Origin: Limisphaerales bacterium
Lineage (GTDB): Bacteria > Verrucomicrobiota > Verrucomicrobiia > Limisphaerales > UBA1412
Assembly: GCA_050949405.1 (NCBI GenBank)
Contig: JBMNFQ010000001.1
Location: forward strand, 2,410,727-2,474,726
Length of the DNA: 64,000 bases
Direction: 5' to 3'
Below the pieces are notes generated by a model, which saw only the letters and a list, made by a program, of their open reading frames with translations, did no database searches and had not been told where the DNA came from. Both the position numbers and the translations under genes were made by a program. Shown piece after piece: positions 5,914-28,170 of the stretch. Within the stretch, counting starts at the first letter, position 1; each line of letters begins with the position of its first letter.

Positions 5914-5941
5914 AAAAAAAGCCCCATCGGTCGGATGAGGC
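5914..5941 (-). terminator. Intrinsic terminator after the 496-aa ORF
   Basis: Minus strand GCCTCATC-CGACC-GATGGGGC followed by T7. Confidence 0.75.
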
Positions 5942-5966
5942 TCATAAAAAAGGGGGGCTGAATCTG

Positions 5967-7457
5967 CTATTTCCTGTCTGGCTTTTTCTTCCGGCTTGCC
6001 GCGGTCGGTTTTCGTTTTGCCTTTGCCGCCGCAGCCTTCTCCTTACGTCTCTTTTCATCCGCCGCAGCCCTCACATTTTTAATGTTTTTTCCGCCTTCCC
6101 TTAGTTCAGCTAAGGTTTTATTTAATGGATATTTCCCTGTGCCAGCGTCGGGTTTTCGGTTTATCAAATAGAGCTTTTCACGTAGAGTTCTTTCATTACA
6201 TCCGTATTCTTTAGCAAGGTCTTTTAGTGTTACATATTTTTCCTCTTCCTTAGGCTCCACCTTGTCTCGTACTACTTGTATCTCTTGTATTATCTCTTTC
6301 CCCTGAGCTCGTATTACATTTCCTCCTTCCCGGAGCACCTCCTCTGTAGCGGACTTTATATCGTCGCGAGTGAGTTCACATTTTTCTCCTTTTCTTGCCA
6401 ACGGTTGGTTAAATTGAAAATATCGAATTAAGTCCCCATAATCATCCCAACAAAACTGGCGTTTCGTTTTCGTAACCTCTACTTCGAGTTTAAATTTGAA
6501 TTGCTCATTTGTGCCCCCATCTAGTTTAAAGGTATCCAATATCCCCTCGACTCCTAGCGGATAGCCTCCAGCCACACTAGATGTTAGGGTCTTGCCTGTC
6601 GCCTTGTCCTTAATCACCAAAGAAAAGTTCACATTATTTTCATTATCATGCGCATCACTCTCTGCTTTTTTTTCGTTATTTTTCGAAATCTTTAAATGAA
6701 TGATAGAATCTTTATCCTTAGCCAAATAAGCCCGGAAAAATTGAATATTATGCAAGGAGGAATCACTAGACGAGCGTATCTTCTCAAGATGCTTGCAAAC
6801 AAAGTCCACAATCTTAAATTTATTTGAATCTGAACCAGCCCAATCCAATAGACTTTTTCTTGTTCCCTCGTCATTCGTATCCCCGTACTTCTTGCCCCAA
6901 TCATATATCTTATCGAATAATTGTTTTTTCTCTGCATTGAATTCCTCAATTTTAGAGTCTATGTAGCAACTTTCTTTTAATTCCCGGATTGTGTACAATA
7001 ACCCATTTCTTTTTAGAAAATCACGATAGTTTTCATCGGGTTCCCAAATAAAAGAGCTGAAGTCATCCAAGACTTTATCTAGCTGGGCAATCACCTCCTT
7101 GACATACTTCTGCGGGATATTGATTGCATCGGGTTCCAACCTCGAATCAATCTCATTCAACATTGATTGCACCCTCCAGTTATCCTCATCTATTGCATGC
7201 GCTTTATCATGATGTGCTTTCCGCTGTGGACTGTCTTTCTCTAGCGGTTTTTCGCATTTCTCAAGCAGGTGGAACCTTTGAGAGTAGATTTCTCCACTTT
7301 TCTTTTGGAGCCCGGCACATGTCTCACGATATTTGTTCTTTGTATTTTCAGGAATCGCTACCTCCCTATCAATACAATCGCGAATGTTCTTTAATATCAG
7401 AGAAGCCTCGTTCTCTATTTGTGCGAATTCATTTTCCAGTTCACTTTGTGTTTTCAT
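5967..7457 (-). CDS. Hypothetical protein, 496 aa, Lys/Glu-rich, with C-terminal HTH-like motif and basic tail
   Basis: Long ORF with GGAG/AAGG upstream of the ATG and its own terminator; VTLKDLAKEYGCNERTLREKL resembles an HTH; no other family recognised. Confidence 0.75.
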   Translation of the reverse strand: MKTQSELENEFAQIENEASLILKNIRDCIDREVAIPENTKNKYRETCAGLQKKSGEIYSQRFHLLEKCEKPLEKDSPQRKAHHDKAHAIDEDNWRVQSMLNEIDSRLEPDAINIPQKYVKEVIAQLDKVLDDFSSFIWEPDENYRDFLKRNGLLYTIRELKESCYIDSKIEEFNAEKKQLFDKIYDWGKKYGDTNDEGTRKSLLDWAGSDSNKFKIVDFVCKHLEKIRSSSDSSLHNIQFFRAYLAKDKDSIIHLKISKNNEKKAESDAHDNENNVNFSLVIKDKATGKTLTSSVAGGYPLGVEGILDTFKLDGGTNEQFKFKLEVEVTKTKRQFCWDDYGDLIRYFQFNQPLARKGEKCELTRDDIKSATEEVLREGGNVIRAQGKEIIQEIQVVRDKVEPKEEEKYVTLKDLAKEYGCNERTLREKLYLINRKPDAGTGKYPLNKTLAELREGGKNIKNVRAAADEKRRKEKAAAAKAKRKPTAASRKKKPDRK

Positions 7458-7501: not shown

Positions 7502-9190
7502 TTAGTCAGTGAGTAGTTCTTTAAGCTGTTCAAGCGCCTGGGCTAGCTTTTCCGGGGGTGTGTCTTTCAGGATAGAAACCGCCAGGGACTTGCGTTCTTT
7601 GGGCGTTTGGGCCTTCTTCATGGGCAGGGTTAGTTTGGGCGCTGCTTCTTTCAAAGCATAGGCGGGGGCTTTGCTGGTAAAGCCTTCCTGCATGAAAGTA
7701 TCGTCAATTTTAATGTAATGCCGGACAATTACCCCTACAAGGGAAGAGCCAAGAACCTTCTGAATAAGTTCCATCTGTACCCCTGCTTTAATTGCTGCCA
7801 CTACAAAGGAGCCGCGGAAGCTATGCCAGCCGCGAAGAGAGGCTCTGATTGCTCTGCCTTTTATATCGCTATTCAGCCTGCCGCGGCCCTCTGGCTCTTC
7901 TTCGGTTTGGGCCTTGAGCTTTATCCTTCTCAGGATTCTCAGGCCGCTCAGCTCTTCCAGGGCGTTCAGATTCAAAGAAACGGTGCCTTTGCTGACCTGC
8001 ATTTCACGGGCAATCTGGGGAACCGTCTGGCTTTCCAGGTAACGGGTGACAATTTCCCGGACTCTTTCCTTGCGGTCTTCTCTCCAAAGAGAGAGCTCAA
8101 TCCTTTCCAGAGCCAGTTTAAGGGTTTGGCCCGGGTTTCTGTTCTTCACATTGCGAAGCTCCTTCCGCTTTGTCCCGGTATAGCCCAGAGCAAACAAAAC
8201 TCTGTTCAGCCGGTCTTTCAATACCTTTTGATTTTTGAGATATTGCTCTGCGATTCCGGGCAGCACATACTTTGCCGCGGCTCCTTCTGCCTCTCCCTTT
8301 CTGGCCGCAAGCTCTTCAAGCTCGTTATAAAGTAAAGGCCACATGCCCAGGGTAACATTGCCGCCCGTTTTGTAGGTATGCAGGGAAATGAGATTGCGTT
8401 TGAAGTCTACTGAGTCCCATTCCAGCAAGCAAATATCCTTCAATCTTAGCCCGGTGCAAGACGCCAGAATTACCATGCTTTTAATTTCTGAATCCAGCTC
8501 AGCCGCCTTTTGGATAATCTGGCCTATCTCTTCAGGGCTGAATAGTTCCCGGGAAATAAGCCCGCCGGTCAAGCGTTTCAAGTCTTTCAGCCATTCATAG
8601 GTTTTAGAAAAGGAAGAGTACCGCCGGAAAACAGCTCTCAGTGTAACAAGATTGTCATTCCAGGTGCGGGGGGTAAGGTGCAAGTCATTTTCAAGATACC
8701 CAAAGAAAGCGCTCATTTCTTCGATAGAAACCGTTTCCAGGTGCCGCGTCTTTGGGAAGCGCTTAGCCATAAACCCGGTGAACCTTTTAACCTTTGCCCG
8801 GGTGTAATTGTCGTTTTTAGTGAATACCCTGCCAGTGTAGAGTTCCCGGGCCATTCTCTCCCAGAGCGTCTTCAGCTCTATGCCCGCGGCTTGGGTTTGC
8901 CCATATTTGACTTTGAGAAGATGCTGGGCCGCTTTTATCTCCAAACGCTGGCGTTCCCCTACTTCTTTCCCGTCATGGGTCTGTCTTTTGAGATTTTCCA
9001 GAATCTCTTCGGCTTGTATCCTTGAATGCTCAAATTCAGAATCGCCTCTATCCTGTGCCAGGCCGCTGGGCGGGGGCGTTCCCCTCCAATGGCACAAGCT
9101 GACCTCTAAGCGCCTTCCTTCTTTCATGTATCTGCCGAACCAATGAGGGCGCAAATAGCCAGAAGAGTTTTTTCTCAATTTTAAGCTCAT
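7502..9190 (-). CDS. int: Tyrosine recombinase/integrase with an internal HTH insertion
   Basis: CTGLRLKDI (catalytic Arg), YKTG (Lys), HSFR (HxxR), LGSS in place of LGH, RHY (catalytic Tyr); likely start is ATG 9190 (MSLKLRK). Confidence 0.9.
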   Translation of the reverse strand: MSLKLRKNSSGYLRPHWFGRYMKEGRRLEVSLCHWRGTPPPSGLAQDRGDSEFEHSRIQAEEILENLKRQTHDGKEVGERQRLEIKAAQHLLKVKYGQTQAAGIELKTLWERMARELYTGRVFTKNDNYTRAKVKRFTGFMAKRFPKTRHLETVSIEEMSAFFGYLENDLHLTPRTWNDNLVTLRAVFRRYSSFSKTYEWLKDLKRLTGGLISRELFSPEEIGQIIQKAAELDSEIKSMVILASCTGLRLKDICLLEWDSVDFKRNLISLHTYKTGGNVTLGMWPLLYNELEELAARKGEAEGAAAKYVLPGIAEQYLKNQKVLKDRLNRVLFALGYTGTKRKELRNVKNRNPGQTLKLALERIELSLWREDRKERVREIVTRYLESQTVPQIAREMQVSKGTVSLNLNALEELSGLRILRRIKLKAQTEEEPEGRGRLNSDIKGRAIRASLRGWHSFRGSFVVAAIKAGVQMELIQKVLGSSLVGVIVRHYIKIDDTFMQEGFTSKAPAYALKEAAPKLTLPMKKAQTPKERKSLAVSILKDTPPEKLAQALEQLKELLTD

Positions 9191-14544: not shown

Positions 14545-16107
14545 ATGTCTAAGACCTCTTCTTCATCTTTTGGTAAACCACCTCTGCGGCTTTTAGTCGT
14601 AGACGATTCTGCCTTTGATGCGCAAATGATCGCGTCAAAGCTGCAGATTTATGGCTATGAAACAGAGATGGAACGGGTAGAGACCTTAGCCGATTTTCGC
14701 AAAGCGATGACGGCATCTACTCCTTGGGAAGTCATCATTTCTGATTATTTCATGCCCGACCTGAAAATGATGGATATTCTGGAGTATCTGAAAAAAACTC
14801 AATCTGATACTCCCTTCATAATTGTTTCTGGCGGTATTGGCGAGGCTGAAGCTGTCGCGGCCATGAAAGCGGGGGCCAACGACTATGTCCTGAAAGACAA
14901 CTTGCAAAAGCTCGGGGCTGTCGTTGATAGAGAACTGCGGGATGTACAAATAGCACGCGCGCAGAAGGAGGCCGAAATAGCACTTAAGGAAAGCGAATAT
15001 CGCTACCGCACCCTTTGGGAAAACTCCAAAGATGCCCTCATCCTGGTTGATGCCAAAAGGAATATCCTTCTCTGCAGCCCTGCAACAGAGAGTATTTTTG
15101 GTTATCCGGACGAATTTCTCCAACAGAAGCCTCTCTCTACGTTACAACCTCCGGAGAAGTTTCCCCAACGACCACTCCTAAGCGAGTGTTTCAAAAACGG
15201 AACAATTCACCTCTTTGAACGTACTGAGACTCAAGCCTTGCACAAAACAGGAAAAGTGGTCGATATCGAGGTGGATGTCAGCAAAATTATCCTCAAAGGA
15301 GAAATTATTGCCTGTCTTTCTATTCGTGATGTTACAGAGTGGAACCGTACACAAGCCGAGCGCAGTCGCAACAGAGATCAATTGCGGTTCGCCCAGGAAA
15401 TTCACAAAAACCTATATCCATCAGAGCCGCCAGATTTTCCTGGCTATGATATCGCAGGAAAGTCTTATCCAGCTGAAGAAATAGGTGGCGATTATTTTGA
15501 TTTTTTCTCAGAGTCCGAGCACACTCTTGACGTAGGCTTGGGGGATGTTTCGGGCCATGGGCTGGGACCAGCCATCCTCATGTCAGAAACGCGAGCTTAC
15601 CTGAGAATACTCTCGCGCACTCGAGAAAACCTGGATGAGATTCTGACACGAACGAATGAAGTACTGGCAGAGGATATGGCAGGAAAACATTATGTCACTC
15701 TGACGCTACTAAGGCTAATTTCCAGACCGCCATCTCTGATTTATGCCAACGCTGGTCACATAGCTGGATACATTCTGAATTCCGTAGGGGACATAAAACA
15801 ACGATTAACCCGCACCGGAATCGTCTTGGGACGCAAAAAAAACTCCACATATACTCAGAGCGACTTTATCTCCTTGGATGAGGGGGACTTAATTCTGCTG
15901 ATGACCGATGGGATGCAGGAAGTTTTTTCAGAATCAGAGGAAATGTTCGGTGCAGAGCGAATACTGGAGGTAATCCGTAAAAATATTGAAAAAACCTCCA
16001 GCCAGATTATTGATGAAATTTATAAGGAAGGAATCGCATTTGCGAGCAGCAGCACCCTGGATGACGACTTTACTTGTGTAATTATCAAAGTCACTCCTGA
16101 GGATTAA
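14545..16107 (+). CDS. Response regulator receiver + PAS + SpoIIE/PP2C phosphatase (RsbU/RsbP-like)
   Basis: LVVDDS..IISD..K receiver motifs, PAS region (DALILVD), IGGDYFD, GDVSGHG, ANAGH, TDG, DDFT. Confidence 0.88.
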   Translation: MSKTSSSSFGKPPLRLLVVDDSAFDAQMIASKLQIYGYETEMERVETLADFRKAMTASTPWEVIISDYFMPDLKMMDILEYLKKTQSDTPFIIVSGGIGEAEAVAAMKAGANDYVLKDNLQKLGAVVDRELRDVQIARAQKEAEIALKESEYRYRTLWENSKDALILVDAKRNILLCSPATESIFGYPDEFLQQKPLSTLQPPEKFPQRPLLSECFKNGTIHLFERTETQALHKTGKVVDIEVDVSKIILKGEIIACLSIRDVTEWNRTQAERSRNRDQLRFAQEIHKNLYPSEPPDFPGYDIAGKSYPAEEIGGDYFDFFSESEHTLDVGLGDVSGHGLGPAILMSETRAYLRILSRTRENLDEILTRTNEVLAEDMAGKHYVTLTLLRLISRPPSLIYANAGHIAGYILNSVGDIKQRLTRTGIVLGRKKNSTYTQSDFISLDEGDLILLMTDGMQEVFSESEEMFGAERILEVIRKNIEKTSSQIIDEIYKEGIAFASSSTLDDDFTCVIIKVTPED

Positions 16108-21660: not shown

Positions 21661-22848
21661 TTATTGTTTTGGGTAAAAAACCATTTTGCCTTCAAAATTC
21701 CGAATCAACAAATGCTCTTCCTTTTCTTCAACCACATAAACCGGAGGCAACGGCGTTTTCCCTCCGCCATCAGGAATATCCACTACGAACTCGGGGACAG
21801 CAAAACCTGTCGTATGCCCTCTCAAAGAGCGAATAATTTGAACGCCTCGCTCAACTGGAACCCGCAAGTGAGAAGTTCCATTAAGCATATCGCACTGATA
21901 CAAGTAATAGGGTCTGACCTTGCAGATCAAGAGCTTTTGAACCAGAGCGGTCATCACGGTTGCATTATCATTCACTCCTTTGAGCAAAACCGATTGATTT
22001 CCGAGCGGAATGCCGACATCGGCCAGATATTCAAGAGCCCGTCTGCTTTCCAGAGTGAGCTCCAATGGGTGGTTCGTTTGAACATTAATAAACAGAGGAG
22101 AAAAAGGACGCAATGCTTCCGCAAATTTCTTGTCCACTCTCTGCGGTAAGGTAATGGGGACACGCGTACCTATACGGATGATCTCGATATGAGGTATCTT
22201 TCTAAGCTCCTCCAAAATGGAGACCAGGCGTGCCGTCGGCAAAAGAAATGGGTCACCTCCACTAATCAAAACGTCCCGTACTTCTGTATGTTCCTTTATG
22301 TAGTCCAGCTGCTCACTCCCAACTGAATAAGCGCGATTTTGCCCTACCAGCCGCCCCCGGGTGCAATAGCGACAATAGGCAGGACAATGGGCTTGAACTA
22401 AAAGCAGGACCCGATCGGGATAGCGATGTACCAGGCCTGGTGCCACTGTATAGGGCTCCTCGCTGCAAGGGTCAAACGACTCCTGCGGGCTCACCAGGGA
22501 TTCTTCCTCCCTCGGAATGAATTGAGCTCTTAAAGGGCATGACGGATTGCGGCCATCTACAAGCGCTGTTAGGTAGGGCGTTAGTGCCATTGAAAAGCGC
22601 TGTGTGGCAGTGCGAATTCCTTTAAGTTCAGAATCAGTCAACTCTGGGAAGACACCCCGAATTTCACTTTCGGTTGTGACTCGGTTGCGCATCTGCCACT
22701 TCCAGTCATTCCACTCAGAGTCAGTAACGTGCGTCCAGGAGCCACGCCCTGCTGAGTTAAACTTTTTCAGTGAACGGCAGAGCTGCTCATCCACTGGTTC
22801 TACGGCATTAGGATTATCTTTCACTTTCATCCAGCTAGCTATAAACAT
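21661..22848 (-). CDS. kamA: KamA-family radical SAM lysine 2,3-aminomutase
   Basis: WNDWKWQMRN, HRYPDRVLL, CPAYCRYCTR, SGGDP, NQSVLLKGVND, DIPDGGGKTP. Confidence 0.85.
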   Translation of the reverse strand: MFIASWMKVKDNPNAVEPVDEQLCRSLKKFNSAGRGSWTHVTDSEWNDWKWQMRNRVTTESEIRGVFPELTDSELKGIRTATQRFSMALTPYLTALVDGRNPSCPLRAQFIPREEESLVSPQESFDPCSEEPYTVAPGLVHRYPDRVLLLVQAHCPAYCRYCTRGRLVGQNRAYSVGSEQLDYIKEHTEVRDVLISGGDPFLLPTARLVSILEELRKIPHIEIIRIGTRVPITLPQRVDKKFAEALRPFSPLFINVQTNHPLELTLESRRALEYLADVGIPLGNQSVLLKGVNDNATVMTALVQKLLICKVRPYYLYQCDMLNGTSHLRVPVERGVQIIRSLRGHTTGFAVPEFVVDIPDGGGKTPLPPVYVVEEKEEHLLIRNFEGKMVFYPKQ

Positions 22849-24434: not shown

Positions 24435-27242
24435 CTATCTTCTTTTTGTTGGATTACCTGACCCTCGATTCGCAGGACTTTGCCTGATGGAGGGAGAAGA
24501 GGGCTGCCGAATCGCTGGTGAAGGTGTAGAGGGCCTCACTTGGGGAGTCGGCTGAGGTTGTACAACAGGTCGGCTCGGAGGTGTAACCTGCGGCGTTACC
24601 GCAGGCCTTACCGGTGTTGACGTTCTCACTGCAGGGGTGACACGATTCTGCACCGATGGACGAACTTGAGGAATCACCTGAGGCTGTACAGCAGGCCGGC
24701 TTGGAGGTGTAATCTGCGGCGTTACTGCGGGCCTTGCCGGCGTTGGCGTTCTCACTGCAGGGGTGACACGATTCTGCACCGATGGGCGAACTTGAGGAGT
24801 CACCTGAGGCTGCACGGCAGGTCGGCTCGGAGGTGTAACCTGTGGCGTTACCGCGGGCCTTACCGGCGTTGGCGTTCTCACTGCAGGGGTGACACGATTC
24901 TGCACCGATGGACGCATCCGCATATCCGGCTGAGTCTGTGGCGCCGTTGGGCGGCTCGGAGGCAAGACTTGCCTCTCGATAGTTCTCGACGGTATCGAAG
25001 TTCTGGCTTCCGGGCTAACCCGAGTTTGGTTCAATGGGCGAACGCGGAGGTCCGAGTGAGACGGCTGCGCTACAGTCCGGTTTGAGGGCTCTACTCTAGT
25101 ATTCTCCGGAAGTGTTCTTGTTTGCTGGAGGCTTGTATTATTGGCTCCATTTTCCCTGCCTGCTCTCTGCCGCGCTTGAGCACGTGCGTTATTTCCGGGA
25201 ACATCCATTTCCGCTGCTGAACGCCTGCCAGGAGGAGAATTAACAGTATCAAAGGGACGCATTCTTTCAGGTGCAGGCCGAGGTGTGGTCAGGTTATTTT
25301 GATTACCTGGAGCAAGAACGGTGCGTCGCGGATAATCTGCAATGCCCGGCTGCCTGGCAGTATCTCTCTGTGGCGTGCCAACACGTGGTCTGGTATCCAT
25401 TTCAGTCTCAGGGCGTCTGCCATCAAGGTTTCCTGATGGAGGCCGTACCCTCTCCTCACCTCTGCCCGGTGGATTGATTCTGGCTCCGTCACCTCCATGT
25501 CCATTGCGGGGTCCCTCTCCCACGCCATTTCTTCCAGGAGGCTCTCTTCCATCACGAGGCGGATCTCCATTTGGATGGCGGGGCGGACGATGATACCCAG
25601 CATGTGGCGGCCGTGGAGGGCCCGGAGGCAAACGCCGAACCACAGGAATCACAACAGGTCTGTTAATCACTATGATCGGGGGTGGAAATAAAACAGGCCC
25701 TGCTCCAACTATGACAGCTCCTGTCCCAAAACCGGCACCCACTAAAAACGGATTGGAATGAACCGTGACAATTTCTCTTTCAATAATGACCGTTCTGTTT
25801 TCCAAAGCTGGCTGACCAGTACCAGCCATGGGTGAGCTCTCGCTAACAGTATATTCGGGCTCTACCACCTCTATCTGCTTGCTACGCCATTGCGCCTGCA
25901 CCCTGCCAGCAATCATCAGTAGTTCTGTGCGAGTAATACCAGGTTTATTGGCCTTGAGGACCGCTGCCATCCCGCCAAAAATTGCTGCATCAGCCGATGT
26001 ACCGGCAACCACGACGTCATCGGAAAAGACGGCATAAGGAATATCAGTGTAGACATTGGTCTGCCCTTCCCGTATCCAGGGAGGCAAAATAACCTCCGGC
26101 TTCCTGCGAAAGTCAACCGTAGGCCCGCTGGAGGAGCTTTCCGATAAATCTCCTACCGAGATCACATGACGGTGATCAGCGGGAATCATGATTTCCCCAC
26201 CTTCCGTGTGGTCATCAAAAGTAAGCACTCCCTCATTAGCGTGAACAATCACTCTTATCTTATCTTTCGCCTGCGAAAAGTTGTTGCTCACGTTGTGAAT
26301 CACAATTGCATAACGTTTGTCCTTACGCAAACCGTTCAAAAACACCTCTTCTCTGGCCAGTTGACTTTGCTGGCGCTCAGAAAGCTCTTCATTAACTGAG
26401 GGATCGACAGCTACCTGTGCATAGGTAGACTTCCCAACCAGCTCTCCCAGTCGGTCACCCTCGTATTCGTAGATGTACAGGTCAAGGTCTTTGAGTGCCT
26501 GATAGTCGCGGTCATCTGAAAAATCATTCCAAACACAAAGAACACGAACATCTTTCTCATCAGACTTCATCGTGAAGAAGAGTTTATCTCGATTTTGAGA
26601 ACGACTGACTTTATTAAAAAGGAGATTCCCCTCTTTTGAGGTTTGAATGGAGTCATTGTAAACGGCTCTGCCGTAATTACCAGCAGCATTGATCCAGGTG
26701 ATTCCTGATTCAATCGCATCATCCACGATCGCATTTACAAAGCCTTTGCCATCGTAGTTGCCACCATACTCCCAGTTTTGCGCATAAACAATGATATCAA
26801 CCTTTTCCTCTATGGCATATCGGACGGCGCGACGGAAATTCGTAAGACCGTTTGCATTTAAGAGGTAAAGCTGGGGGGCAACATCATAGCTCATTCCGGT
26901 CATGGCCCAGACGAGTTGGGCCACACGCCGCCCATGAGCTTCGTTGGCAGGGGGAGCCTCGTAGCCCGGATTTAAGTCATATTTGTTAATCATCTCCTCA
27001 TCATACTGATTAACGATGAGGGTACCCGGTGGCAAGTTGCCAGCCTCTTCAGCTCCTGCAAAGCCCCGCTCCAGAATGGCTATTTTTACCCCAGGCAAAT
27101 TCTCTTTTACGGTGGTACGGGCTAAATAATCAGCTATTCCGTAGCTTTTGAGCATATCTTCATGATACTCAGGCAGACTTACAGCCTTAGCCATAACGGT
27201 CATTGTTAGGATTAGGGCAAATAAAAAGGTTGTTTTCTTCAT
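24435..27242 (-). CDS. Secreted S8 (subtilisin-like) peptidase with a long Pro/Arg/Thr-rich C-terminal tail
   Basis: Signal peptide; VKIAILERG (Asp site = Glu), AHGRRVA (His), NAAGN (oxyanion Asn), AGTSADAA (Ser); low-complexity tail. Confidence 0.78.
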   Translation of the reverse strand: MKKTTFLFALILTMTVMAKAVSLPEYHEDMLKSYGIADYLARTTVKENLPGVKIAILERGFAGAEEAGNLPPGTLIVNQYDEEMINKYDLNPGYEAPPANEAHGRRVAQLVWAMTGMSYDVAPQLYLLNANGLTNFRRAVRYAIEEKVDIIVYAQNWEYGGNYDGKGFVNAIVDDAIESGITWINAAGNYGRAVYNDSIQTSKEGNLLFNKVSRSQNRDKLFFTMKSDEKDVRVLCVWNDFSDDRDYQALKDLDLYIYEYEGDRLGELVGKSTYAQVAVDPSVNEELSERQQSQLAREEVFLNGLRKDKRYAIVIHNVSNNFSQAKDKIRVIVHANEGVLTFDDHTEGGEIMIPADHRHVISVGDLSESSSSGPTVDFRRKPEVILPPWIREGQTNVYTDIPYAVFSDDVVVAGTSADAAIFGGMAAVLKANKPGITRTELLMIAGRVQAQWRSKQIEVVEPEYTVSESSPMAGTGQPALENRTVIIEREIVTVHSNPFLVGAGFGTGAVIVGAGPVLFPPPIIVINRPVVIPVVRRLPPGPPRPPHAGYHRPPRHPNGDPPRDGREPPGRNGVGEGPRNGHGGDGARINPPGRGEERVRPPSGNLDGRRPETEMDTRPRVGTPQRDTARQPGIADYPRRTVLAPGNQNNLTTPRPAPERMRPFDTVNSPPGRRSAAEMDVPGNNARAQARQRAGRENGANNTSLQQTRTLPENTRVEPSNRTVAQPSHSDLRVRPLNQTRVSPEARTSIPSRTIERQVLPPSRPTAPQTQPDMRMRPSVQNRVTPAVRTPTPVRPAVTPQVTPPSRPAVQPQVTPQVRPSVQNRVTPAVRTPTPARPAVTPQITPPSRPAVQPQVIPQVRPSVQNRVTPAVRTSTPVRPAVTPQVTPPSRPVVQPQPTPQVRPSTPSPAIRQPSSPSIRQSPANRGSGNPTKRR
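24537..24914 (-). repeat. Three tandem 126-bp (42-aa) in-frame repeats in the S8 tail
   Basis: GCAGGGGTGACACGATTCTGCACCGATGG recurs at 24631, 24757 and 24883; protein unit RPSVQNRVTPAVRTPTPVRPAVTPQVTPPSRPAVQPQVTPQV. Confidence 0.92.
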
Positions 27243-27292
27243 AGTCTCACTCTTTCTTCAAGTTTTAGCCTTCATCTGAGTTCTCTCTTTCG

Positions 27293-27325
27293 CTCTTCCC
27301 TCCCCCTCGCAGAGGAAGGGAGGAG
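27293..27325 (-). other. Strong intergenic stem-loop without U-tract between the Tyr-rich gene and the S8 gene
   Basis: Minus strand CUCCUCCCUUCCUC-UGC-GAGGGGGAGGGAAGAG, followed by CGAAAGAG rather than U-rich sequence. Confidence 0.5.
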
Positions 27326-27423
27326 CCATCTTTGTCGCATGGGCATCCAGAGGATACTTTCCGCTAGAAGCTGGTTCCTCCCCATGTTACAGAATGCCTC
27401 TACACAACCACAACTGGAATCTA

Positions 27424-27939
27424 CTAGCACCAGTAGAAACGATAGTGATATCTGGGATACCGATATCGGTAGCTATAGACCGGGCGATAATAATGCACCG
27501 GACGATAGTAATAGGTGGGGTAATAGGTATAGGTGTAGCAATAGTAGCTGGGTGCCCAACCAAGCCCCACACCCAATCCGGCAAAACCAAAATAGAACCA
27601 CTGCGGGGTTGAGGTGGTTTGATCCATCTCATCCATGCTCTGGGCACCGGGTTTTGTAATCAAGTTCTTGTCGGCTACGATTTCAGCAATAACCTCATCC
27701 GCCGAGGAACTTTCGCTTTGCACTGCATCCTTGGAGATTGTCGTCGTGCCGGCATAGTAAGTCTCTTTACCATTCTCATCTACCTTAACGACAATCACAT
27801 TGGGATTGCTTTGGGCAGCAGTCTGAATGTTTGTATTAACCTTGCTCACTGCAGGAGCGGGGTCCATTTCAGAAGCTGCCGCTGCTATAGTCAGCGCCCC
27901 AATAACCAGAGCACTTGTCCACATTCTGTTTGCATTCAT
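27424..27939 (-). CDS. Secreted hypothetical protein with a Tyr/Arg-rich C-terminal core (precursor-like); alternative starts 27948 and 27987
   Basis: Signal peptide MNANRMWTSALVIGALTIAAA, acidic DEMDQTTSTPQW junction, 18 Tyr in the last 41 residues. Confidence 0.75.
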   Translation of the reverse strand: MNANRMWTSALVIGALTIAAAASEMDPAPAVSKVNTNIQTAAQSNPNVIVVKVDENGKETYYAGTTTISKDAVQSESSSADEVIAEIVADKNLITKPGAQSMDEMDQTTSTPQWFYFGFAGLGVGLGWAPSYYCYTYTYYPTYYYRPVHYYRPVYSYRYRYPRYHYRFYWC

Positions 27940-28170
27940 TATCTTCATAACATGATGCCGATGTTTTGTTCGGTTGAGTACTTGCACTTGCGCCGAAAAG
28001 CACTTGGAGACTGCAACATTTCATCCGGAGCAGACCATCGTATCTGCTCACTTTATTGGACGCCAAAGTCAGTGGTGTTATTCATTCTTTACTAGTAAGT
28101 ACTAACCGGTTCTTTCACTCCGGCTATTCTTTAGGATTGCAAAAAAATATCCTCTTCTTACCCTAGAGTT

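Follow-up and report, generated by a model that had tools for sequence, protein, structure and literature searches.

A secreted tyrosine/arginine-rich small protein and an adjacent subtilisin-like protease gene form a recurrent two-gene cassette, a putative precursor and its protease, in three bacterial phyla

A small gene encoding a secreted protein with an extremely tyrosine- and arginine-rich tail, together with the subtilisin-like (S8) protease gene next to it, forms an uncharacterised two-gene cassette which recurs in Verrucomicrobiota, Bdellovibrionota and Planctomycetota. No curated family or paper was found which describes the pair. The best reading, which is inferred from sequence and gene linkage, is that the protease cuts the small protein and releases a cationic, aromatic, self-associating polypeptide, and this product may be structural, adhesive or antimicrobial. 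The pair was analyzed in a window of 64,000 nucleotides of a Limisphaerales bacterium (GCA_050949405.1, contig JBMNFQ010000001.1, positions 2,410,727 to 2,474,726), and the positions given below are those of this window.

The small gene was located in the list of open reading frames (ORFs) at 27424-27987 on the minus strand, and it gives 187 aa from GTG, 174 aa from ATG at 27948 and 171 aa from ATG at 27939, the last being the form given in a preliminary description of this locus. The observation in that description, of a secreted Tyr/Arg-rich small protein gene 181 bp upstream of a co-oriented secreted S8 peptidase gene, was confirmed. The 41-residue tail SYYCYTYTYYPTYYYRPVHYYRPVYSYRYRYPRYHYRFYWC has 18 Tyr, 6 Arg and Cys at positions 4 and 41, and it is preceded by DEMDQTTSTPQ and WFYFGFAGLGVGLGWAP, as had been described. 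The flanks are a KdsC-type HAD hydrolase and KdsA on one side and FtsK on the other. Both proteins begin with a typical Sec signal peptide, as judged by eye. The segments of the small gene and of the intergenic region are as follows.

27424-27948, minus strand: small secreted putative precursor gene, 174 aa from ATG at 27948, with alternative starts GTG 27987 and ATG 27939 and the stop codon at 27424-27426.
27871-27948, minus strand: signal peptide, residues 1-26, MKIMNANRMWTSALVIGALTIAAAAS.
27862-27870, minus strand: box 1, E-M-D directly after the signal peptide, residues 27-29, within SEMDP.
27649-27798, minus strand: predicted folded part of the pro-region, residues 51-100, a beta-hairpin NVIVVKVDENGKETYYAG plus two helices.
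27601-27630, minus strand: box 2, EMDQTTSTPQ, residues 107-116, the proposed recognition and cleavage region before the core.
27550-27600, minus strand: Gly/hydrophobic-aromatic segment WFYFGFAGLGVGLGWAP, residues 117-133, the start of the proposed core.
27427-27549, minus strand: 41-residue Tyr/Arg/Pro tail ending in HYRFYWC.
27292-27326, minus strand: intergenic stem-loop GGCUCCUCCCUUCCUCUGCGAGGGGGAGGGAAGAGC between the two genes.

The small ORF is a real gene and its composition is more than chance. The next most Tyr-rich 41-aa stretch in any ORF of at least 100 aa in the window has only 7 Tyr. The protein is conserved at 53-99% identity in other metagenomes, and dN/dS against two relatives is 0.16-0.21, with both the pro-region and the tail constrained (0.22-0.28 for the tail). 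No Pfam or NCBIfam family was matched by it. The signal peptide was read from its basic n-region, hydrophobic core and AxA-type end; it is the most hydropathic stretch of the protein and was modelled as a helix by AlphaFold2. The SEMDP of box 1 is invariant in the clade, and an equivalent [AG][GSD]E[LM]D sits right after the signal peptide in the Bdellovibrionota and Planctomycetota relatives. The AlphaFold2 pLDDT in the pro-region is 84-90 for residues 51-100 only; this part is conserved in the long-form relatives, is absent from the short Planctomycetota forms and was matched by no solved structure. In box 2, E107 is invariant and D109 and S113 are at least 90% conserved across 20 diverse sequences, and the family consensus is [ST]E[LMF]D.[ED].[PS]T..[AQ] followed by W/H/C. 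The segment WFYFGFAGLGVGLGWAP aligns with the (G-aromatic/Leu)n tails of relatives. The C-terminal heptapeptide of the tail is invariant in the clade, and its last strand, residues 168-173, is predicted with pLDDT of about 83. The stem-loop was found by RNA folding, and stem-loops with different sequence and U-rich 3′ sides occur at the same place in the related loci L005, L008 and L014; a role as an attenuator is inferred only.

The protease gene was divided into the following segments.

24435-27242, minus strand: S8-like peptidase gene, 935 aa, with a signal peptide, a subtilase domain interrupted by a beta domain, a hydrophobic linker and a long basic Pro/Arg tail.
25863-27179, minus strand: catalytic region, residues 22-460, with Glu58 (27069-27071) at the Asp position, His103 (26934-26936), oxyanion Asn189 (26676-26678), Ser416 (25995-25997) and the inserted beta domain at about residues 194-342.
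25632-25751, minus strand: Gly/Val/Pro-rich hydrophobic linker, residues 498-537.
24438-25631, minus strand: 398-residue Pro/Arg/Thr/Gln-rich tail (pI 12, net charge +37) with three 42-aa (126-bp) tandem repeats at 24538-24914.

The protein matches Pfam Peptidase_S8 (PF00082) at 42.2 bits against a cut-off of 21.8, and more than 400 relatives were found. The AlphaFold2 model has a pLDDT of 86 and gave the secondary structure of the catalytic region, and the best Foldseek matches among solved structures are the clostridial Csp proteases CspB, CspA and CspC. Alignment to subtilisin BPN′ and to relatives showed a point which the preliminary description had missed, that the position of the catalytic Asp is Glu (KIAILERGF). 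It is Glu in 12 of 12 clusters of this clade and Asp in 107 of 108 others, hence the activity of the enzyme in this clade could be reduced or changed, and the Csp family includes pseudoproteases. However, His, Asn, Ser and this Glu are invariant in the clade although synonymous sites are saturated, which argues for a working active site rather than a decayed one. The hydrophobic linker has a hydropathy of 1.97 and is membrane-helix-like in this protein but is not conserved as such in L005 and L008. The repeats of the basic tail were detected by Tandem Repeats Finder, their number differs between the relatives L001 and L002, and the tail is absent from relatives in other phyla.

The linkage of the two genes was then surveyed in other genomes. 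That the homologues might not be linked elsewhere had been set beforehand as the refuting condition, and the outcome was strongly in favour of the linkage. Within the clade the two genes stay adjacent where the flanking genes differ. About 65 of 80 genome loci carrying this S8 subtype, in the three phyla, have within about 2 kb a small gene encoding a signal peptide, an acidic E[LMF]D box right after it, a linker, the second box and a Gly/Tyr/Trp/Arg low-complexity tail with almost no acidic residues or Lys, usually ending in Trp. About 58 of these small genes are directly upstream and co-oriented, with a median gap of about 73 bp, and six of the remaining loci are cut off just upstream. In the reverse direction, 9 of 9 small-protein homologues have a large co-oriented gene directly downstream, which is an S8 relative wherever it could be checked; one is cut by the contig end. 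No third gene is conserved, no immunity or exporter gene occurs in any locus, and the neighbours are housekeeping genes. The earlier statement that no tailoring enzyme is adjacent holds in all loci, and the suggestion that similar ELD..S..W aromatic-rich proteins and this S8 subtype occur in Bdellovibrionota was verified, and they also occur in Gemmataceae and Isosphaeraceae. One cultured carrier is Limnoglobus roseus PX52 (locus L064).

The composition of the small proteins supports a leader and core anatomy. Box 2 lies about 10 residues before the tail, at a fixed distance from its start. The pro-region is net negative in 44 of 48 sequences and the tail is net positive in 54 of 56, the values being -8 and +6 for the window protein. 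Over 56 sequences the tails have Gly 37%, Tyr 23%, Trp 7.6%, Phe 5.4%, Arg 4.6%, no Lys, no Glu and Asp 0.1%, and the last residue is aromatic in 53 of 56. The tail length varies by repeat expansion, as in structural low-complexity proteins.

Based on these data we tentatively propose a precursor/protease cassette. In this view both products are exported by Sec, and the acidic pro-region of the small protein, carrying two E[LMF]D boxes, keeps a very sticky, basic, aromatic-rich core soluble. The neighbouring subtilase with its central beta domain would recognise box 2 and cut about 8-10 residues after it, after STPQ here and after T..A in other phyla. The freed core, which here is WFYFGFAGLGVGLGWAP plus the Tyr/Arg/Pro tail and elsewhere is 48-172 residues of Gly, Tyr, Trp, Phe and Arg, would self-associate in the cell envelope or outside the cell through Tyr/Trp-Arg contacts and beta-strand stacking, giving a structural or adhesive material. 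In this Verrucomicrobiota clade the long basic tail of the protease may hold it at an acidic surface. The gene pair, its conservation, the boxes, the composition, the charge split and the (modelled) fold of the protease are established by the analysis, whereas the cleavage and its site, the activity of the protease, the location of the product, its self-assembly and its function are inferred, the cleavage from gene linkage only. There is no obvious route across the outer membrane, the folded middle of the pro-region is missing in Planctomycetota forms, so part of the mechanism differs between phyla, and AlphaFold2 gives low confidence for most of the core, so that neither a beta-hairpin nor an amyloid shape is supported directly. 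The interpretation in the preliminary description, of an S8 protease releasing an aromatic-cationic core which acts as an antimicrobial beta-hairpin, functional amyloid/adhesive or cross-linkable coat protein, is partly supported.

It is also possible, though less likely, that the small protein is mainly a partner of the protease, a separately encoded prodomain-like chaperone, inhibitor or tether, whose box 2 or C-terminal strand would occupy the active-site cleft and whose sticky tail would fix the enzyme to the envelope, the real substrates lying elsewhere. The S8 protein has no N-terminal prodomain of its own, as only about 30 residues separate the signal peptide from the first catalytic strand; the prodomain of the Csp subtilases stays bound, touches the inserted jellyroll domain and can act in trans (PMC3567191); the small protein has a confidently predicted small alpha/beta unit plus a C-terminal strand; and the linkage is strict and one-to-one. 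However, the Planctomycetota versions have only a 20-45-residue Ala/Pro linker between the boxes and no folded unit, yet they keep the boxes and the tail. The predicted unit matches no solved structure and so is not an I9-type prodomain, and the long, fast-varying low-complexity tails are hard to explain for a chaperone. Somewhat less likely again is a cationic antimicrobial or predation-related peptide, neutralised by an anionic propiece until the protease releases it, as in defensin-type or bacteriocin precursors. The acidic pro-region and basic core and the aromatic/Arg-rich composition fit this layout, many carriers are predatory Bdellovibrionota, and there is one conserved Cys near the C-terminus, with a second in some members; but no immunity, exporter or regulator gene occurs in any of about 65 loci, the cassette lies among housekeeping genes with stable synteny, the tails reach 172 residues and are 37% Gly, and non-predatory Planctomycetota and Verrucomicrobiota carry it too.

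A ribosomal natural-product precursor, cross-linked by enzymes encoded elsewhere in the genome (a cyclophane-forming radical SAM enzyme, as for GrrA/OscA, or an oxidase making dityrosine) and with the S8 as leader peptidase, is doubtful. The leader/core anatomy with a conserved box is similar in form to the FNLD box and LanP-type cleavage of class I lanthipeptides, and a Gemmataceae member gives a weak match to TIGR04260 GrrA/OscA1 at 17.3 bits, below the cut-off of 31, which most likely reflects composition. No tailoring enzyme is conserved near the pair in any phylum, and the radical SAM gene 1.6 kb away in the window is of a lysine-2,3-aminomutase type (LAM_C domain) and is absent from the other contexts of the pair. 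A single-pass membrane protein unrelated to the protease, with WFYFGFAGLGVGLGWAP as membrane helix and the Tyr/Arg tail in the cytoplasm, is very unlikely and already disfavoured. A hydrophobic stretch flanked by Trp/Tyr and followed by a basic tail does fit the positive-inside rule, and the protease has a similar linker followed by a basic tail. But the 19-residue Kyte-Doolittle mean of the stretch is at most 0.79 against about 1.6 or more for membrane helices, it is shortened by 5 residues in the clade member P0006 and contains Arg in L014, the same position in other phyla is a Gly/Tyr/Trp repeat, and the protease linker is not conserved as a helix either.

The cassette was also compared with the closest known systems. 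Class I lanthipeptide precursors with a LanP (NisP-type) S8 leader peptidase likewise have a small precursor gene next to a secreted subtilase, a short acidic/hydrophobic leader box (FNLD there, [ST]E[LMF]D here) some residues before the cleavage site, which here is a proposed one, and a stem-loop between the precursor gene and the downstream gene. Here there are no LanB/LanC or other modifying enzymes and no ABC exporter or immunity genes, the precursor has a Sec signal peptide and two boxes, the core is Gly/Tyr/Trp/Arg low complexity rather than Ser/Thr/Cys-rich, and the protease scores far below the PatA, mycosin and QhpE models. The Csp germination subtilases (Foldseek E about 1e-13, TM 0.43-0.45) share a subtilase domain interrupted by a beta-sandwich/jellyroll insertion between the oxyanion Asn and the catalytic Ser, and the family also tolerates changes in the catalytic triad; but sequence identity is only 13-16%, and the present protein has no N-terminal prodomain, is predicted to be Sec-exported in Gram-negative phyla, has no spore context and has a small low-complexity protein as partner, not a cortex hydrolase (PMC3567191). 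The GrrA/OscA1 glycine-rich repeat precursors (TIGR04260), modified by a radical SAM enzyme, share the Gly/aromatic/Arg repeat composition of the core, but the window protein gives no hit, no partner radical SAM gene is present, and there are twin E[LMF]D boxes and a signal peptide instead. In bacterial functional-amyloid operons with a dedicated peptidase (TasA/SipW; Fap with FapD) a secreted self-assembling subunit is encoded next to a processing peptidase, but there is no sequence or composition similarity and there are no secretion-pore or nucleator genes here.

An experimental analogue of the proposed self-association exists in eukaryotes. In tick cement glycine-rich protein, a signal peptide is followed by a disordered Gly-rich chain in which regularly spaced Arg and aromatic residues between Gly-rich spacers drive phase separation and ageing to a gel (PMC11794139). 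High-Gly/Tyr keratin-associated proteins, schistosome eggshell proteins and plant GRPs are further secreted Gly/aromatic/Arg low-complexity proteins of this adhesive and structural kind. There is no homology with the bacterial protein, in which an acidic pro-region and a putative dedicated protease precede the sticky part, and the window version has replaced most Gly with Tyr, Pro, Arg and Thr.

The minus strand of 24435-27987 holds two co-oriented ORFs, which are as follows.

27424-27987, minus strand: the small upstream ORF, with three possible starts, giving 187 aa from a GTG at 27987, 174 aa from the ATG at 27948 and 171 aa from the ATG at 27939, the last being the form used in the preliminary description.
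24435-27242, minus strand: the S8-like peptidase gene of 935 aa, lying after a gap of 181 bp.

The observation made in the preliminary description, that of a Tyr/Arg-rich secreted precursor lying next to a secreted S8 protease, was confirmed. The small protein has, in order, a typical Sec signal peptide (MKIMNANRMWTSALVIGALTIAAAAS), a pro-region of about 90 residues ending in ...SMDEMDQTTSTPQ, the segment WFYFGFAGLGVGLGWAP and a 41-residue tail with exactly 18 Tyr, 6 Arg, 4 Pro and Cys at tail positions 4 and 41. The large protein also starts with a signal peptide, both signal peptides being inferred from the sequence by inspection. The flanks are KdsA and a KdsC-type HAD hydrolase on one side and FtsK on the other, and the wider neighbourhood is housekeeping (transketolase, aminotransferase, ScpA/ScpB, exonuclease VII, LpxB, prephenate dehydratase and others), along with an ordinary signalling protein at 14545-16107 (plus strand) in which a response-regulator receiver is fused to PAS and a SpoIIE-type PP2C phosphatase domain. 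The Tyr richness is not due to chance, as the next-best 41-residue stretch in any ORF of at least 100 aa in the window has 7 Tyr. The small ORF is a real gene, being conserved at 53-99% identity in other assemblies and having a dN/dS of 0.16-0.21 against two relatives, with constraint on both the pro-region and the tail.

The pair is conserved well beyond this organism. The closest genome records are Verrucomicrobiota MAGs, and within that clade the small gene always sits directly upstream of the large gene, including where the flanking genes are entirely different, as in the loci L008 (with an MFS transporter upstream and DUF5696 downstream) and L005. The catalytic part of the large protein has more than 400 relatives, which comprise a tight clade at 62-100% identity and, after a gap, proteins of about 500-620 residues at 35-42% identity. 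A scan of one genome per species returned 80 loci, of which three are Verrucomicrobiota and the rest are mainly Bdellovibrionota (Bdellovibrionales, Pseudobdellovibrionaceae, Bacteriovoracaceae, Oligoflexia) and Planctomycetota (Gemmataceae, Isosphaeraceae and the cultured Limnoglobus roseus PX52). The ORFs around the protease gene were read in these loci, and by our own ORF and motif rules rather than curated annotation about 65 carry a small gene of the same build. About 58 of these are directly upstream and co-oriented with a median gap of about 73 bp, 5 are divergent upstream in one Bdellovibrionales subgroup that also has a lipoprotein gene between them, and 2 are just downstream. Of the loci without such a gene, six are cut off within about 330 bp upstream, six are the most distant relatives (31-36% identity) and three are unexplained.

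The linkage also holds in the reverse direction, as all of the 9 small-protein homologues looked up have a large co-oriented gene directly downstream. Six of these large genes are shown to be S8 relatives by Pfam hits on record (three of them only faint) or by alignment, a seventh (locus L011) is cut after 255 residues but aligns at 76% identity, an eighth (L008, with no Pfam hit on record) aligns to the window protease at 50% identity, and the ninth, next to the small-protein homologue P0128, is cut by the contig end and is counted here only as a large co-oriented gene. An all-against-all blastp of the ORFs from the 80 loci found no third conserved gene; only antisense artefacts inside the S8 gene and a lipoprotein restricted to one Bdellovibrionales subgroup were recovered. 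This lipoprotein, of about 187 residues, sits directly upstream of the protease in loci L015, L016, L018, L019 and L022 (about 5330-5990 in L015) and also in L024 and L029, has a ...SCGG lipobox-like start and ends in ...EVQWQW or ...DWIW. In the first five loci the aromatic-tail gene is divergent and about 700-860 bp away, whereas in L024 and L029 it lies downstream of the protease, and the lipoprotein may be a third component there. A radical SAM gene at 21661-22848 (minus strand), 1.6 kb from the pair, was considered as a tailoring enzyme and rejected, because it encodes a lysine-2,3-aminomutase C-terminal domain (KamA/EpmB type) and, although syntenic in close relatives, is absent where the pair sits in other contexts; it is probably unrelated.

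All members of the small-protein family share five features, namely a signal peptide, a first box ([AG][GSD]E[LM]D) immediately after it, a linker, a second box ([ST]E[LMF]D.[ED].[PS]T..[AQ]) followed at once by Trp, His or Cys, and a low-complexity tail of 48-172 residues. Box 1 is SEMDP in the window protein, AGELD in Planctomycetota and ADQ[IL]D or ASELD in Bdellovibrionota. The linker is of 20-45 Ala/Pro-rich residues in Planctomycetota, whereas in Bdellovibrionota and Verrucomicrobiota it is of about 70-85 residues and contains a conserved V.V(D/N)..G....Y hairpin and an N-[KL]-I motif. Over 56 sequences the tails contain Gly 37%, Tyr 23%, Trp 7.6%, Phe 5.4% and Arg 4.6%, with no Lys, no Glu and Asp at 0.1%; 54 of 56 tails are net positive, and the last residue is Trp in 40, Tyr in 12, Phe in 1 and Cys in 3 (the window clade, ...FYWC). 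A single Cys a few residues from the C-terminus is common. The pro-region is net negative in 44 of 48 sequences, and in the window the pro-region is -8 and the core +6.

The window protein shows all the features by which we would define the proposed family, namely the signal peptide, box 1 right after it, box 2 about 10 residues before a Gly/aromatic/Arg tail lacking acidic residues and Lys, an aromatic or Cys C-terminus and a gene next to this S8 subtype. Its homology to the Gly-rich members does not rest on composition alone. A profile built only from the Verrucomicrobiota sequences finds intermediate and Bdellovibrionota-type Gly/Tyr-rich members sharing these features, at E 1e-20 for P0128 and about 1e-4 for others, and in a 20-sequence alignment Glu107 is invariant and Asp109 and Ser113 are at least 90% conserved. 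That profile finds only 12 representatives, and a word-indexed search with the broader profile was saturated by low-complexity candidates and gave 35 hits, hence neither number is a measure of the true family size. The window clade is the variant in which the distal tail has swapped most Gly for Tyr, Pro, Arg and Thr; it keeps a short Gly-hydrophobic stretch, and its last seven residues (HYRFYWC) are invariant. A reading of this stretch (WFYFGFAGLGVGLGWAP) as the conserved helix of about 19 residues or more of a single-pass (type I) membrane protein was rejected, since its hydropathy is at most 0.79 and it is shortened in the clade member P0006 and interrupted by Arg in the clade member L014.

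AlphaFold2 with 36 sequences is confident only for residues 51-100 of the small protein (a hairpin plus two helices) and for the last strand, residues 168-173, while the rest of the core scores below 50. The strand has nothing else to pair with than the hairpin, a pairing which is inferred without inspection of the model coordinates. A Foldseek search of solved structures with the small protein gave no match with E below 1, and by this test it is not an I9-type subtilisin prodomain. Pfam (2025) and NCBIfam (June 2026) gave nothing for the window protein or five relatives and one sub-threshold TIGR04260 hit for a sixth, and all database members are unnamed or ‘hypothetical’.

The large protein matches Pfam Peptidase_S8 (PF00082) at 42.2 bits against a cut-off of 21.8, and its relatives score 37-67 bits. 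Alignment with subtilisin BPN' and with relatives places His103 (EAHGRR), the oxyanion Asn189 (AAGNYG) and Ser416 (AGTSADAA), but the canonical Asp-His-Ser triad is not present, because the catalytic Asp position is Glu58 (KIAILERGF; 27069-27071). It is Glu in 12 of 12 clusters of the Verrucomicrobiota clade and Asp in 107 of 108 relatives from the other phyla. All four residues are invariant in the clade although synonymous sites between its members are saturated, which we take as a sign of a maintained active site, a putative natural Glu-His-Ser variant, rather than a decayed one, its activity being inferred from sequence alone.

The AlphaFold2 model of the protease (mean pLDDT 86) has the subtilisin alpha/beta fold, and Foldseek finds Csp proteases, Tk-SP and subtilisin BPN', all with probability 1.00. 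The model shows an all-beta insertion of about 150 residues between Asn189 and Ser416, and the best matches in the PDB are the clostridial germination subtilases CspB, CspA and CspC, at E about 1e-13, although the TM of 0.43-0.45 and the identity of 13-16% are too low to show a common origin. In the Csp proteins a jellyroll domain interrupts the subtilase domain and contacts a retained prodomain (PMC3567191). Unlike these, the present family has no prodomain of its own, as only about 30 residues, modelled as short helices, lie between the signal peptide and the first catalytic strand.

Only the Verrucomicrobiota clade adds a hydrophobic Gly/Val/Pro linker, which is membrane-helix-like in the window protein but not conserved as such, and after it comes a tail of about 400 residues (24438-25631) with Pro 21%, Arg 15%, pI 12 and net charge +37. 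Within the tail, three 126-bp (42-aa) tandem repeats at 24538-24914, which are 90% alike, encode VTP.VRTPTP.RPAVTPQ.TPPSRPAVQPQV.PQVRPSVQNR. The repeat number differs between close relatives (857 aa in locus L001 against 899 aa in L002), and in locus L003 the gene is split into three ORFs within this region, from either assembly error or decay. The relatives in Bdellovibrionota and Planctomycetota end instead in a conserved W[RKQ]TP....L motif after an extra region of about 100 residues (columns about 980-1010 of the protease alignment), which the window clade replaces with the Pro/Arg tail.

The intergenic region folds into a strong stem-loop at 27292-27326 (minus strand). Relatives with unrelated intergenic sequence also have a stem-loop at this place, in L005 (about 2087-2135), L008 (about 8581-8628) and L014 (about 5917-5970), with U-rich 3' sides. 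The window hairpin has no U-tract, and a canonical intrinsic terminator was therefore rejected and only a stem-loop can be claimed. It may be an attenuator or a processing site, and by inference only it would fit a higher expression of the small gene than of the protease gene.

The analysis thus establishes a strict, bidirectional and phylum-spanning link between one small secreted protein and one secreted subtilase with no other conserved partner, a conserved box at a fixed distance before the start of a basic, aromatic, acid-free tail, an acidic pro-region and purifying selection on the small gene. It is inferred, on the other hand, that the subtilase is active, that it recognizes box 2 and cuts between it and the first aromatic residue (after ...STPQ here and after ...T..A elsewhere), and that this would remove the solubilising acidic part and free a chain that self-associates, the self-assembly, as a functional amyloid or phase-separating adhesive protein, resting on composition and analogy only. 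The interpretation in the preliminary description, that the protease releases an aromatic-cationic core, is accordingly only partly supported. We tentatively favour a structural or adhesive role for the freed chain, for three reasons. No locus holds immunity, exporter or regulatory genes and the cassette sits in stable housekeeping neighbourhoods; the tail length varies more than threefold through repeats; and the composition is that of sticker-spacer proteins, for which it was shown in tick cement glycine-rich protein that regularly spaced Arg and aromatic residues between Gly-rich spacers drive phase separation and ageing to a gel (PMC11794139).

Other explanations remain possible but are considered less likely. 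The small protein may be a trans-acting prodomain-like partner or tether of the protease, which is attractive because the enzyme lacks a prodomain and resembles Csp proteins, but this reading is doubtful and is weakened by the Planctomycetota forms, which have no folded unit. It is also unlikely, though possible, that the core is a cationic antimicrobial or predation peptide, and still less likely that it is a ribosomal natural product with unlinked tailoring enzymes, for which the only support is the sub-threshold match of one relative to the GrrA/OscA1 model. A membrane protein is very improbable.

In form the pair resembles a leader/core precursor with an S8 leader peptidase, as with LanA and LanP, but it does not qualify as a lanthipeptide, cyanobactin, GrrA/OscA or double-glycine system. 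Of the dehydratase and cyclase genes of a class I lanthipeptide system there is no sign, since no third gene is conserved in the 80 loci and the window neighbours are housekeeping genes, and the tail has 3 Thr, 2 Ser and 2 Cys in 41 residues against 18 Tyr. The GrrA/OscA1 model (TIGR04260) gives no hit for the window protein and 17.3 bits against a cut-off of 31 for one Gemmataceae relative, and no maturase occurs in the loci. For the cyanobactin PatA/PatG proteases, mycosins and QhpE, the NCBIfam models give no hit for the window protein, and its relatives score 12-25 bits against cut-offs of 165-421. In place of the GG/GA cleavage motif and C39-peptidase ABC exporter of double-glycine-leader bacteriocins and microcins, the precursor has a Sec signal peptide, and no exporter gene is present in any locus. 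The protease is a subtilase by profile and predicted fold with a non-canonical triad in this clade, and its predicted shape is Csp-like but it is not a Csp protein. Protease-matured secreted precursors are already known, and what is new here is an undescribed family of such putative precursors for which neither Pfam nor NCBIfam has a model and on which, paired with this protease, full-text literature searches found no paper.

If the favoured reading holds, it defines a new protein family and a new subtilase-substrate pair conserved in three poorly studied phyla, at present annotated only as ‘hypothetical protein’ and ‘S8 family serine peptidase’. It would give a simple two-gene model of how bacteria handle extremely aggregation-prone aromatic/Arg-rich chains, which would be kept soluble, exported and then triggered, and it could explain part of the envelope or adhesion biology of Planctomycetota, Verrucomicrobiota and predatory Bdellovibrionota. 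It also offers a natural test of whether Glu can replace Asp in a subtilase triad, and the cores, 48-172 residues made almost entirely of Gly, Tyr, Trp, Phe and Arg, are ready-made sequences for studies of phase separation, adhesives or amyloid. If the core is instead antimicrobial, it is a new peptide class. A more far-reaching possibility, which we regard as unlikely on present evidence, is that of an unrecognised, phylum-spanning class of bacterial secreted sticker-spacer proteins in Verrucomicrobiota, Planctomycetota and Bdellovibrionota, in which a Gly/Tyr/Trp/Arg low-complexity chain is held soluble by an acidic pro-region with twin E[LMF]D boxes until a dedicated subtilase switches it on, after which it would condense or age into an envelope, holdfast or matrix material. 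This would be a bacterial counterpart of animal cement and cuticle glycine-rich proteins with a built-in proteolytic trigger, and the Verrucomicrobiota clade would use a natural Glu-His-Ser subtilase.

The low-complexity tail is easily mis-assembled or mis-called, as is seen in one copy of the small protein (P0005, from a JGI contig, 157 aa), which is identical to another copy (P0002) up to ...DEMDQTTST and then shifts frame, reading the antisense-like Thr/Ile/Pro frame of the tail. Some Planctomycetota loci (L057, 193-834; L062, 4372-5103) hold a second Gly/Tyr/His- or Gly/Trp/Arg/Phe-rich low-complexity ORF a few hundred bp to a few kb from the cassette. Judged by their tails only, these end differently from the family, with no aromatic or Cys last residue, and they could be paralogous material proteins or reading-frame artefacts of GC-rich repeats.
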